Shown here piece after piece: positions 12,021-33,047 of a stretch of 33,047 nucleotides of DNA. Under the pieces are notes generated by a model. It saw only the letters and a list, made by a program, of their open reading frames with translations. It was not told the origin of the DNA and did no database searches. Numbering within the stretch: the first letter of the stretch is position 1; each line of letters begins with the position of its first letter. Source of the stretch: a virus (taxonomy: Duplodnaviria; Caudoviricetes); the IMG/VR virus record IMGVR_UViG_3300044296_000036, positions 1-33,047 of that record. One strand, given 5' to 3'. A program made the translations under genes and the position numbers.

Positions 12021-12325
12021 TTTGCCACCCATACGCGACACATACGACCGCTCGCGCCTTTCTTCTTGCCATCGGTATAAACCAAGTCCATACGCTCTAA
12101 CTCGCTCATCCTGCGAGCCACCGCGTTATGGTCTAGGTCAGTCCTTGCAGCAATGTCATAGATAGTGCCGGGCTGTTCTAATGCCGCGATGATGATGCCA
12201 TGATGTTTCGTGGCTAAATCAGTTGCCTGATCTGCTGCTGCATGGCTCGTATCAGGATCGGTGTTACGCACTCGAGGAAACTGCAAGTTCGGAAAGTACC
12301 TGTTCAGTATCATTTTTTTATCCAT
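12017..12325 (-). CDS. Winged helix-turn-helix DNA-binding protein
   Basis: R.TDPDTSHAAA, then TIYDIAARTDLDHNAVARRMSELERMDLV. Confidence 0.7.
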   Translation of the reverse strand: MDKKMILNRYFPNLQFPRVRNTDPDTSHAAADQATDLATKHHGIIIAALEQPGTIYDIAARTDLDHNAVARRMSELERMDLVYTDGKKKGASGRMCRVWVAK

Positions 12326-12486
12326 TCATAGAAAAGGTTATTTTCTGTTGCCCTCACTTCAACTACTGAAAACTCAGCCGCAAACGCCCTCACAATTGCC
12401 GCTGATTCGGGCATAGCTGCTGCCCGTTCCTCTCGCGTCATGTTCTGAACGCGCACTGCTGTTGCAACTCTTTCTCTCCAAGTCAC
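12310..12486 (-). CDS. Hypothetical protein, 58 aa (probable GTG start)
   Basis: GTGA overlap with upstream stop; the longer called ORF would overlap the upstream gene by about 100 nt. Confidence 0.55.
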   Translation of the reverse strand: MTWRERVATAVRVQNMTREERAAAMPESAAIVRAFAAEFSVVEVRATENNLFYEWIKK

Positions 12487-12827
12487 GCTGCCCGTAATCG
12501 CAGGCGATATTGCGTCATGTCCTCGCCCGGTCTTGCTGGCACTCCGATCTTTCTGCCGTATTCCATCGTCAGTTGATCGCTTGTCCACCAGGCTACGACT
12601 TTCTTCTCAGGCATTGATATCTCATCGTCGAACCGTTCGCCATTGAGCCAGCTTGCGGGATGCGGAATATATTGCTTGTCCCTTCCTTCAGCAGTCCACA
12701 TTCGCACATGATCATCAATAGCTTGAAGTGCTTTTTGTTGCTGCTCGGCAGTTAGCTTTGACCACGCTTTTTGGGCGTCTTTGCGGGCGACTTTTTTGGG
12801 ATATTTGCTGTAGAAATTGTCGAACAT
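12483..12827 (-). CDS. Replication-initiator-like protein consisting of the C-terminal domain only (114 aa)
   Basis: GGAGG RBS; FDNFYSKYPKKVARKDAQKAW...YIPHPASWLNGERFDDE resembles the C-terminal domain of phage replisome organisers. Confidence 0.7.
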   Translation of the reverse strand: MFDNFYSKYPKKVARKDAQKAWSKLTAEQQQKALQAIDDHVRMWTAEGRDKQYIPHPASWLNGERFDDEISMPEKKVVAWWTSDQLTMEYGRKIGVPARPGEDMTQYRLRLRAA

Positions 12828-12934
12828 CTTGCCTCCATTTCTCTTATGTCTATTGCTGCGTCTGCTACCCCATGCCAATCTTGCTGCCTGACTTTTAGCA
12901 TCAGGTACTCAATCATCACTTGTTTATCTGTCAT
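12752..12934 (-). CDS. Small hypothetical protein (WHGVADAA.DIRE motif)
   Basis: First ORF after the structured RNA; its 3' tail overlaps the next gene. Confidence 0.55.
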   Translation of the reverse strand: MTDKQVMIEYLMLKVRQQDWHGVADAAIDIREMEARCSTISTANIPKKSPAKTPKKRGQS

Positions 12935-12940
12935 AGGTAT

Positions 12941-13130
12941 CTGCTCTGTGGTGAGCGCATTTAGCCTTAGCCTGTGCGCCCTTTAGTCTGCTCTGCGGAG
13001 CCGCGACATTCGTCAGCCTTTCGGTCATGGATGCTAACTTCGCCGTCCATTTGTGCGCTGTTTCAGACCTTAGCCACCAGTAGCGCTGTCCACTCGCATC
13101 GCTGTTGCTCTCATTGCCCAATGCGGTGTA
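12941..13130 (-). ncRNA. Candidate ~190-nt multi-stem, pseudoknotted RNA, family unassigned
   Basis: At least five local stems and three to four cross-pairings found by hand in an interval with no credible CDS. Confidence 0.6.
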
Positions 13131-13134
13131 GTCC

Positions 13135-13266
13135 AAAAGAAAAACCCACCTACGGCTGGGCTTCAGACCTCGACGGAAGTGAGCAGATTGCGGCGCTTTG
13201 CTCTCGACAGCCGAAGCCCATGCGTAGATGGGTTCGTACCGCAATCTTTTCACGCTTCCGGCGTGG
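13135..13266 (-). ncRNA. C4-like antisense RNA with upstream a1/b1-type target hairpin and U-tract terminator
   Basis: Long stem 13234-13143 followed by UUUUUCUUUU. Loop CCGCAAUCU and bulge CUUCCG are complementary to upstream AGAUUGCGG and CGGAAG. Confidence 0.7.
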
Positions 13267-13291
13267 CCCGATCTTTCTCTCGGACAGGCAT

Positions 13292-13320
13292 AGAATGGCA
13301 TAGATAAACGGGCGTGTCAA
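13292..13320 (-). promoter_or_regulatory. Sigma70-type promoter for the C4-like RNA and replication region
   Basis: TTGACA (13320-13315), 17-nt spacer, CATTCT (13297-13292), directly after the cro stop. Confidence 0.65.
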
Positions 13321-13542
13321 CTACTGCTGCGGGACGATCTCTGCCACCATCTGCTTAACGGGGATGTAATCCGCAGGATTGACCTTCAGAGCGCCCTCAG
13401 TGACCACCTGCAGCTTGTACGCCATCCCTTCGGGGATTTGCCCCCTCTTGCCCCATTGCGCCACTGCTTGCGACGTAATGCCCAATGCCTCGGCTAGCTT
13501 GCGACGAGTGCCAAAATGCTGTTCTGCTTCTGCGACTTTCAT
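13321..13542 (-). CDS. cro: Cro-like HTH transcriptional regulator (73 aa)
   Basis: GGAGG RBS; FGTRRKLAEALGITSQAVAQW....IP...AYKLQ. Confidence 0.88.
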   Translation of the reverse strand: MKVAEAEQHFGTRRKLAEALGITSQAVAQWGKRGQIPEGMAYKLQVVTEGALKVNPADYIPVKQMVAEIVPQQ

Positions 13543-13554
13543 GATGCCTCCTAG

Positions 13555-13700
13555 AGTGAAAGAAAACTTGCAAACAATCGTATCCTGTGCAAACATCCCT
13601 TGTCAAGCATCCTTTCAAGAATTAACATATCTTTACAATTTTCCTTTGCAACAAGCGTTGACTTATGCTCACAAGGTAAGTAAAGTCTGTCTTGCAGTAT
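13555..13700. promoter_or_regulatory. Divergent promoters with operator-like dyads
   Basis: Minus: TTGACA(13606-13601)-18-TACGAT. Plus: TTGACT(13658-13663)-17-TAAAGT. Imperfect AAG-N4-CTT dyads such as TGAAAGAAAACTTGCA and TCAAGCATCCTTTCA. Confidence 0.7.
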
Positions 13701-13726
13701 CCAATTGACAACAACAGGAGCAACAA

Positions 13727-14020
13727 ATGAACCTCTGCAAAGACTGCGCTCACTACAAGAAAAACGCCGACAACATCGAAGCATCTGAATGTATGCGCAA
13801 ACCTGCTTTCTCGCCGATCAGCGGGAATTTGCTGCCGACGTATTGCAACCTCGAGCGTGCAGCCTGGGGAACGTGCAAGCCCGAAGGCAATCACTTTACT
13901 GTGCCGATGACGCAAGACGAACTCGACGCGGATCGTGAAATGAAGTCACGCGAGTGGGAACGGTGGATTGGCCCTGGCGACACTGATTATGAACGGCTCA
14001 ATAGAAAGCTCGGAATATGA
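13727..14020 (+). CDS. Cys-rich hypothetical early protein
   Basis: AGGAG RBS; CKDCAHY...C...C...C pattern. Confidence 0.75.
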   Translation: MNLCKDCAHYKKNADNIEASECMRKPAFSPISGNLLPTYCNLERAAWGTCKPEGNHFTVPMTQDELDADREMKSREWERWIGPGDTDYERLNRKLGI

Positions 14021-32595: not shown

Positions 32596-33047
32596 TAAGT
32601 ACCTGCGATGCCTGAAGCGATGTGCGGGTAGCCTGCAATGCAGGTAACAGCAGTCGCGTTAGAAATCGAGGAAGTTGCAACAAGGCCAAACACCGCGCCA
32701 CCCGACACGACAGCATCATCCAGCACGCCGGAAGTTGCCGTAGTGTAAAGCGGGACGTTCGGAGCGCAGTTCGCAGCCAGGTTAACCATCACCTTGCCGC
32801 CCATCTGCACCCAACCGTAATAGCCCGAAGCAATCGAGGTCTGAGCGAAACCAATACGCTTGCAAGTCGCTGCAAGGGTCGTGGTCATCATCTGCGCCTT
32901 TTGGGTGTCATAAATTGCGACAGCCGCATAGGTGCTGATTTCAGACAGAGCTTGAACATACACGGCTTGGCCGCCGTCGGACAGGTTGACCACCGTGCCG
33001 GTCGTGAATTGCGAAGTCGAATCCACGTTCGTCAGGGTAACGCCTGC
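32595..33047 (-). CDS. Second (allelic) partial copy of the putative capsid decoration gene; 5' end lies off the right edge
   Basis: Lies in the terminal overlap; differs from the left copy by two residues (M/L, I/V). Confidence 0.75.
   Translation of the reverse strand, partial: AGVTLTNVDSTSQFTTGTVVNLSDGGQAVYVQALSEISTYAAVAIYDTQKAQMMTTTLAATCKRIGFAQTSIASGYYGWVQMGGKVMVNLAANCAPNVPLYTTATSGVLDDAVVSGGAVFGLVATSSISNATAVTCIAGYPHIASGIAGT
32596..33047. repeat. Right copy of terminal direct repeat
   Basis: Matches 1-452. Confidence 0.95.

Follow-up and report, generated by a model that had tools for sequence, protein, structure and literature searches.

In initiators of the lambda type, the N-terminal domain opens the DNA via iterons and the C-terminal domain recruits the helicase. 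The viral genome studied here (the window: all 33,047 nt of IMG/VR record IMGVR_UViG_3300044296_000036) appears to encode only the second of these parts, which raises the question of how its DNA is opened for replication. The initial annotation, made from the sequence alone, proposed that a densely pseudoknotted RNA of about 190 nt, encoded just upstream of a truncated initiator gene, takes the place of the missing origin-binding half. Here we examine this proposal by comparing the locus with its relatives in viral and bacterial genomes.

Genome and replication module

The phage genome of about 33 kb is 98% complete according to CheckV. The ends of the window share about 450 nt (1-452 and 32596-33047) with scattered differences, and one virion gene is present at both ends; because of this overlap the genome looks complete. 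PHROGs matches include capsid, portal, terminase, Erf, SSB, NinB and Cro. With the same database, neither a cI-like repressor nor an integrase could be recognised; cro is present, and a divergent promoter region lies at 13550-13727. The annotated lack of a helicase, primase or polymerase agrees with our searches: no such family was found among 56 ORFs of at least 44 aa (PHROGs) or on 30 ORFs (Pfam), and the DnaB_C profile, run over the whole record, is absent from the window. The genome may encode a small loader of an unrecognised type. Cumulative GC skew does not switch clearly at the RNA element, and its turn near 14 kb tracks a change of coding strand. The features of the replication module are listed in Table 1.

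Table 1. Features of the replication module and their positions in the window
Feature	Position	Strand	Details
Cro-like gene	13321..13542	-	P22_Cro, E 1.8e-18; phrog_409; replication module directly behind
Putative sigma-70 promoter	13292..13320	-	TTGACA 13320-13315, 17-nt spacer, weak -10 CATTCT 13297-13292
Attenuator-like leader	13135..13286	-	two 5' hairpins, long hairpin 13234-13143, U-tract 13144-13135
RF02932 5' domain	13008..13128	-	cmscan and covariation
P1	13128-13119/13101-13091	-	covariation
PK1 CAG/CUG	13104-13102/13080-13078	-	97.4% paired, covarying
P2	13086-13082/13059-13055	-	covariation
PK2 GGUC/GACC	13069-13066/13026-13023	-	4/4 Watson-Crick in 53/54 sequences
T-loop-like UGAAACA	13065-13059	-	accompanies P2
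P3 (AUGGA/UCCAU)	13050-13046/13031-13027	-	interlocked with P4
Conserved GGCGAAG	13044-13038	-	in the 5' domain
P4 (GUUAGC/GCUGAC)	13038-13033/13017-13012	-	interlocked with P3, covarying
Direct-repeat unit 1	12987..13011	-	identity covariation with unit 2; partly in loop of a short stem
3' stem-loop GGGCGCA/UGCGCUC	12953..12981 (12981-12975/12959-12953)	-	covariation; loop GGC invariant in A1
Direct-repeat unit 2	12940..12962	-	3' end of the RNA; predicted R-loop nucleation site
Small ORF, 60 aa	12752..12934	-	overlaps initiator start; in many, not all, relatives
C-terminal-only initiator, 114 aa	12483..12827	-	helical domain 1-74 and small helical domain 76-114

The 114-aa protein had been described as resembling only the C-terminal domain of phage replisome organisers. 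PHROGs bears this out: the protein matches only the C-terminal part of phrog_270 (E 1.1e-16), phrog_9474 and phrog_9327, and the family match begins at its residue 2. Full-length relatives have HTH_36, DUF1376 or Phage_rep_org_N before the same C-terminal part. They add a winged-helix domain and a linker in which iteron-like repeats and purine tracts are visible by eye; the purine-rich tracts that follow the iterons are of CAGAG type and resemble the ends of the RNA repeats described below. Judged by these matches, the 114-aa protein corresponds to the C-terminal half of a winged-helix initiator, without the winged-helix domain and the iteron-bearing linker. There is no iteron array either, as had been noted: among the 20 of 21 repeat families listed for 12200-13750, all are two-copy families.

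The AlphaFold model of residues 1-74 (pLDDT 90.7) resembles viral replisome organisers and a RepA-like initiator in fold, with a weaker match to a phage DnaD (TMq 0.85, E 0.04). Among solved structures, Foldseek gave no match at E <= 0.001, VIA nothing clear (best Z 5.3 and 5.4) and a sequence search a best E of 0.04; the DnaD-like structure 2zc2 matches weakly (Z 3.4, rmsd 2.6, 56 aligned). The ESM Atlas yielded only viral clusters without names and a weak Phg_2220_C lead. A presumed likeness to DnaT found no support from PF17948, which gave no match. The 60-aa ORF has no family match in PHROGs or Pfam. In many relatives an A-run at the junction of the small ORF and the initiator is a possible frameshift site. 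The interval between the RNA and the short initiator is an insertion hot spot in loci L001-L036, with DNA methylases, a Mom-like enzyme and a glucosyltransferase-like gene.

The RNA element and its covarying structure

The structured element is real and is an already catalogued RNA motif. The sole Rfam match in the window is RF02932, Betaproteobacteria-1 (cmscan, 13128-13008, minus strand, 75.5 bits, E 2.3e-12, cut-off 49.4), and it spans the full model, positions 1-120. A comparison with Rfam, plasmid-linked motifs included, had been suggested in the initial annotation; it brought no match to ARRPOF, GEBRO or PAGEV up to E 10 in 12300-13800. The annotation had thus recognised a dense pseudoknotted RNA correctly and had overlooked both its Rfam family and a leader of about 150 nt upstream.

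Rfam types RF02932 as "Gene; sRNA". We attribute the motif to Weinberg et al. 2017, and we take its architecture to be three stems and three pseudoknots. The element shows this build, with PK1 and PK2 paired as given in Table 1 and P3 and P4 interlocked. A blastn search with the element against cultured phages gave no match, nor did one with a homologue of the element against plasmids. The main-text passages of PMC5737381 do not name the Betaproteobacteria-1 motif. A literature search that included few subscription papers and, for PMC5737381, main-text passages only returned no paper on the function of the RF02932 motif, and nothing on a link with truncated initiators, on a 3' repeat domain or on sister elements.

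A degenerate sequence pattern found at least 120 viral loci, and their total is estimated at about 280. Alignment A1 comprises 52 non-redundant sequences: 45 passed a strict stem filter (the window among them) and seven were re-added by eye; four sequences without the usual 3' part were excluded. In A1, 84.3% of cells pair, compared with 66.5±0.6 in shuffles (0/500 as high) and 37.6-43.9% with partners slid. Three of the six P4 pairs are fixed by the search pattern, and the remaining three vary compatibly in 54/54 sequences. PK2 has 20 distinct targets among the sequences; shuffles predict 9.1±2.5 fully paired sequences against the 53/54 observed. The main stems and the three pseudoknots (PK1, PK2 and the P3/P4 interlock) are confirmed by covariation. 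Judged by nested folding energy, the RNA does not stand out from shuffled sequences (z = -0.47, 63/200 shuffles as good), so the structure rests on covariation.

All motifs quoted in the initial annotation exist where it placed them. Covariation in A1 upholds the stems P1 (CGCAUUG/CGAUGCG), P2 (GCGCU/AGCGC), AUGGA/UCCAU, GUUAGC/GCUGAC and GGGCGCA/UGCGCUC. Three proposed cross-pairings fell. In place of GGUCU/AGACU, GGUC pairs with GACC in 53/54 sequences, and a partner at the AGACU position occurs in 3/53; GCGA/UCGC is exact in 3/54 and has any partner in 9/54; UGGU/ACCA clashes with the covarying CAG/CUG pseudoknot (97.4% paired). GCUC/GAGC, which has no separate count, lies outside the top 45 covarying column pairs. 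Among the findings that the annotation had named as speaking against its proposal were a lack of covariation among homologues and protein-level conservation of an overlapping 125-aa ORF. Covariation was found, and the reading frame is open in only 1/26 distinct relatives, for which reason we rejected the ORF as a coding sequence.

The label "T-loop" for UGAAACA is borrowed from tRNA structure. The conserved GGCGAAG is reminiscent of the J4/2 strand of HDV-like ribozymes; an HDV-like ribozyme was rejected, since the helix order derived from covariation does not fit it. Divergent RF02932 variants occur in phages of 50-67 kb (L058, L078, L081, L091, L096, L103, L105, L123; L051, L075, L099) and have G-rich 5' parts and different 3' domains without the usual repeats.

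Mutual exclusion of the RNA and full-length initiators

Protein-first searches gave 173 loci with a short initiator, of which 123 were left after de-duplication and 85 had at least 3 kb upstream. Exactly one element was found in 83 of the 85 loci (82 of the 83 on the initiator strand), two elements in none, and two loci had no detectable element. The element is the RF02932 RNA in 42 loci and belongs to class II in 20, IIb in 9, IV in 6, III in 3 and V in 3; 20 of these 41 non-RF02932 matches had themselves served as model seeds. The held-out phage MW202674 from GenBank combines a short initiator with a class II element (E 1.3e-33). C-terminal-only initiators of other families likewise follow the RNA (L040; L113; L247, before a DUF6475 gene; L261, before DnaB).

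None of the 66 full-length-initiator loci with at least 2.5 kb upstream carries any element, and 24 of the 66 have the same C-terminal domain as the short initiators; the further 14 of 80 full-length loci, with a shorter flank, also gave no match. Over whole records, RF02932 was found in 0/50 full-length cases, 18 of which are at least 90% complete, versus 47/48 records of the positive set, where the exception is a class IV phage. There was one match per record, save for a single record, which has copies at both ends. HTH_36 is above the cut-off in 0/48 element-bearing records, and the A4 matches in element-bearing records fall in open frames of at most 157 aa. Comparison of the RNA-first loci with 102 initiator queries revealed no similar N-terminal domain; the sole "N-half" matches came from one truncated query. 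None of the 19 records in which a short initiator matched has DnaB_C. The loci come from related phages and the counts are non-independent, so Fisher p-values overstate the association. The initial annotation had asked whether the RNA occurs equally beside full-length initiators: it is absent from all 66 such loci and all 50 such records.

Sixteen loci covering classes II-V gave no Rfam match at the gathering cut-off. Class II/IIb elements, about 230 nt long, lie in the same slot after the leader (L164, L170, L182, L183, L184, L193, L197, L211, L234 and others); covarying stems and a pairing of a loop with the 3' end are visible by eye, and no Rfam match was obtained in the loci scanned. Classes III (L173, L189, L230), IV (L021, L035, L168) and V (L196, L217, L380, L382) are conserved in this slot as well. 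Class IV has a G5-TA-G6 tract, which to our mind recalls mitochondrial CSB II. In L206, the leader and then a non-coding stretch of about 300 nt occupy the interval from about 860 to 520 nt before the short initiator; the six models miss this stretch, which is possibly a further element class.

Occurrence in other settings

The initiator family of the window is found in the flank of 21/52 RNA-first phage loci; 31/52 are without it, which speaks against an origin. Some of these other loci have a primase-helicase or a helicase/primase nearby, which an R-loop origin would likewise serve; in others, no replication gene was recognised. Also against an origin are 13 records, at least 90% complete, that have neither this initiator nor DnaB_C. 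The initial annotation had also asked whether the RNA occurs only with N-truncated initiators: it was absent from the full-length loci and records, and it is not confined to truncated initiators. A role of the RNA in place of the origin-binding half is partly supported. It withstood the refuting conditions that could be examined, given the covariation, the non-conserved ORF and the absence of the RNA from full-length loci and records.

In a genome collection, 20/120 pattern matches passed the profile and about 17 of them look real; 5/5 chromosomal copies tested were above the Rfam cut-off. Chromosomal and prophage copies of RF02932 are mostly betaproteobacterial. Four flanked copies in betaproteobacterial chromosomes lie beside TniQ/TniB/Tns genes, again a point against an origin, and several are near the ends of Tn7-like islands with TniQ/TniB/Tns and defence-type genes and have their repeats intact. 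Within 4 kb of the 20 genome-collection matches, no initiator of the A2 family turned up. Copies in Tn7-like or defence-type islands are L246, L292, L306 and L313, as well as L507, where the RNA comes right behind the third large gene of the dnaA region. Such copies may be an island origin, a priming site or an anti-phage decoy.

The island copies, near which no initiator was found, would suit a trans-acting sRNA, a ribozyme or a cis-regulator of the variable downstream genes (methylases, nucleases), linked with truncated initiators by shared ancestry only. The Rfam type and the wide variation of the downstream genes point the same way. We nevertheless consider a role of this kind unlikely: it leaves unexplained that several dissimilar elements occur one at a time in one slot, that 0/66 full-length loci carry any and that several truncated initiator families stand behind the RNA, and the genomes would then be without an origin-recognition device.

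Promoter and leader

In the putative promoter, TTGAC is invariant in 27 distinct aligned sequences, and the -10 box of relatives is TACTGT or TAATGT at unchanged spacing. A consensus scan does not list this promoter, because its -10 box is weak. The same scan, which can miss promoters, found none on the opposite strand facing the RNA.

The leader that follows can form rival folds: its 5' segments 13261-13255 and 13246-13239 are complementary to the hairpin segments 13179-13174 and 13193-13186. Its fold has z = -5.06 (0/200 shuffles), and in 20 distinct leaders the rival folds are within about 1-9 kcal/mol of each other. One of them ends in a terminator-like hairpin and U-tract, and a scan lists a terminator-like site here. 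Compensatory changes in the leader pairings were seen by eye. We take the leader to resemble the antisense leaders of P1 c4 and P4 CI; the two share with it paired 5' segments and a rival terminator fold and are alike in build only. The window copy gave no Rfam match up to E 10, c4-type included.

The leader is present in 33/36 close relatives, and the three misses have less than 700 nt upstream. It is followed by the RNA in 31 of the 33 and by a different element in two. In L357, L398, L430, L433, L447 and L455, a leader of the same build runs straight into a full-length initiator gene. We infer attenuation by the leader, which may serve as a copy-control device. Six sequencing runs matched, all with small word shares; of four compared with the window, the two recorded as RNA gave one contig each, covering the leader only (13151-13303 and 13133-13253), and these contigs show neither strand nor ends and so speak neither for nor against expression.

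With P1 placed automatically and hence noisily, 25/51 loci directly follow a U-tract. Where this tract is missing, -10 boxes lie immediately before P1 in 7/26 loci versus 2.2 in controls, a weak excess subject to the same noise. Some homologues follow a stop codon without a clear promoter. These would fit another possibility, in which melting by transcription frees the non-template strand to fold into a DNA signal read by the host's primosome or primase, like the single-strand initiation sites of plasmids and small phages. Covariation cannot separate RNA from DNA of the same sense, and the G-T/G-U wobbles put the folding on that strand; in passages of PMC5737381, Weinberg et al. remark that plasmid-linked motifs could act as ssDNA. 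Against this reading, about half of the loci lie behind a U-tract, and a tethered DNA strand would hardly fold into three pseudoknots. The element also has UGNRANA T-loop-like and GNAA loops, and such loops belong to a class of RNA-type motifs. We regard folded ssDNA as decidedly improbable.

Co-varying repeats in the 3' domain

A 3' domain of about 70 nt lies outside the RF02932 model. Its stem GGGCGCA/UGCGCUC is 73.8% paired in A1, with changes on both sides in 5/7 pairs. Mutual information also revealed column pairs that change to the same letter, not to the complement: 13010/12961, 13007/12958, 13003/12955, 12991/12944 and 12990/12943. These columns form two gapped direct repeats of about 23 nt, mostly 46-64 nt apart. 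The initial annotation had noted a motif that occurs twice; the two copies of CAGAGCAGA are real, and they turn out to be the ends of these longer co-varying repeats.

The longest word common to both units has a mean of 7.0 nt versus 4.39±0.16 with swapped partners (54 distinct sequences; 22 loci that the parser was unable to split were left out). The whole-unit score of unit 1 against its own unit 2 is 9.33 versus 3.77±0.31 swapped, and the own partner is the best one in 34/51 sequences. No third copy or complement of the repeat was found within -400/+500 nt (less in shorter loci) in 27/27 cases. For two segments that are kept identical, while the RNA holds no complement to them, the best explanation is that both pair with the same strand, namely the DNA template. 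Alternatively, the 5' part of each unit could compete for a common partner strand within the RNA; column 191 pairs with either unit. The repeats are purine-rich in phages (282/364 nt) and not in chromosomal copies. The A+T fraction in the 100 nt after unit 2 is 0.57 in the window versus 0.50 genome-wide, and in homologues 0.64 versus about 0.54; this may reflect merely non-coding DNA. The repeat module also occurs in the class V element (four loci viewed), and by eye there is no such repeat in classes II and III.

Paired identical repeats look like binding sites, and the nascent transcript might simply tether the truncated initiator or a host factor via the repeats or the core, with no RNA-DNA hybrid. 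Such a tether would account for the same mutual-exclusion data, and the CAGAG-type tracts after the iterons of full-length genes resemble the repeat ends. Yet the repeat sequence does not follow the protein: the repeats differ between L101 and L048, whose proteins are 96% identical, and between L079 and L107 (76% identical). Repeats that do not track the initiator sequence argue against simple protein-binding sites. Moreover, near-identical proteins stand behind different element classes (L021, L035), and the repeats persist where no such protein is nearby. A protein tether is therefore improbable in our view.

A possible mechanism of initiation

In the loci compared, the RNA and the DNA-binding half of the initiator did not occur together; opening of the DNA at the start of replication is therefore a likely task of the RNA. 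It is probably a cis-acting replication origin that replaces the DNA-binding domain of the initiator and the iterons. Given an origin role, we would expect it to act through an R-loop. This explanation as a whole, an RNA acting in cis as the origin through an R-loop, is the best we have and, in our estimate, has about an even chance.

The R-loop origin would work in four steps. Transcription would start from the promoter behind cro, and the attenuator-like leader would set the frequency of RNA synthesis. The 5' domain, supported by covariation, would then fold and present repeat unit 1. RNA polymerase would open unit 2 about 50 nt further on, and unit 1 would pair with the exposed template strand; the outcome would be a lasting RNA-DNA hybrid running into A+T-rich DNA, comparable to the rG/dC contact of ColE1. 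Finally, the hybrid would provide a primer and/or a displaced single strand, where the C-terminal-only initiator would recruit the host helicase machinery.

In its most general form the proposal is tentative, and we hold it with somewhat less than even confidence: in a widespread strategy of phage replication, the DNA-binding halves of lambda-O-type initiators may have been swapped repeatedly, in several families, for interchangeable folded RNAs (RF02932 and at least four further classes), with a self-matching repeat that guides template invasion and with the opened DNA passed to a stand-alone C-terminal domain.

Comparison with known systems

The window element matches all 120 positions of RF02932, and the Rfam model is without the 3' repeat domain of about 70 nt and the leader. 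RF02932 is an sRNA in Rfam, whereas here it is tied to phage replication modules.

According to passages of PMC4412123, an rG/dC contact is essential for the persistent hybrid of ColE1; passages of PMC5043065 treat the start of the persistent hybrid by the transcript as speculative even for ColE1. Compared with these passages, the element would be like ColE1 RNA II in two respects: a structured RNA, here with a putative promoter, is used instead of melting by an initiator and iterons, and an upstream RNA segment contacts the downstream template strand, which is a prediction here (PMC5043065, PMC4412123). Unlike RNA II, which is about 550 nt long, the element has about 190 nt and no Rfam match to ColE1-type RNAs. 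It has variable, gapped co-varying repeats instead of a G/C run, and it keeps a truncated initiator gene, while the ColE1 type has no element-encoded initiator. Control is apparently by attenuation, and the consensus scan found no antisense promoter; the replicon is a phage, not a plasmid.

The T4 origins oriF and oriG similarly combine a phage promoter with a following unwinding region where the transcript would persist as a hybrid. T4, however, supplies a replisome of its own, and the passages of PMC4412123 used for this comparison describe a promoter and a DUE as sufficient and mention neither a folded RNA domain nor repeats. The action of the element would resemble that of the R-loop origins of ColE1 and T4, but it belongs to neither family. 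With lambda O and the replisome organisers (phrog_270, 9474, 9327, 678, 16167) the module shares the slot after cro, the leader type and the C-terminal domain; this genome has neither the winged-helix domain nor the linker iterons, nor a recognised loader or helicase next to the gene. ARRPOF, GEBRO and PAGEV are likewise structured non-coding motifs tied to replication regions, according to passages of PMC5737381; none of them matched here in Rfam, and the element homologue had no blastn match in plasmids.

Significance

Relative to the literature searched, the swap pattern, the repeat domain and the interchangeable sister elements are new; the RNA itself is a known orphan. This orphan structured RNA, RF02932, gains a testable function, and at least four further candidate RNA classes come from one genomic slot. 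A mining rule follows: to search upstream of C-terminal-only initiators. If the repeat is a guide, matched changes to both copies would be freely programmable and could yield compact RNA-started replicons, and the onset of a persistent hybrid from a transcript could be studied on the element as a clean model. For phage biology, an RNA origin of this kind would account for the replication of many phages of about 33-37 kb in which no helicase, primase, polymerase or origin-binding domain is recognised.
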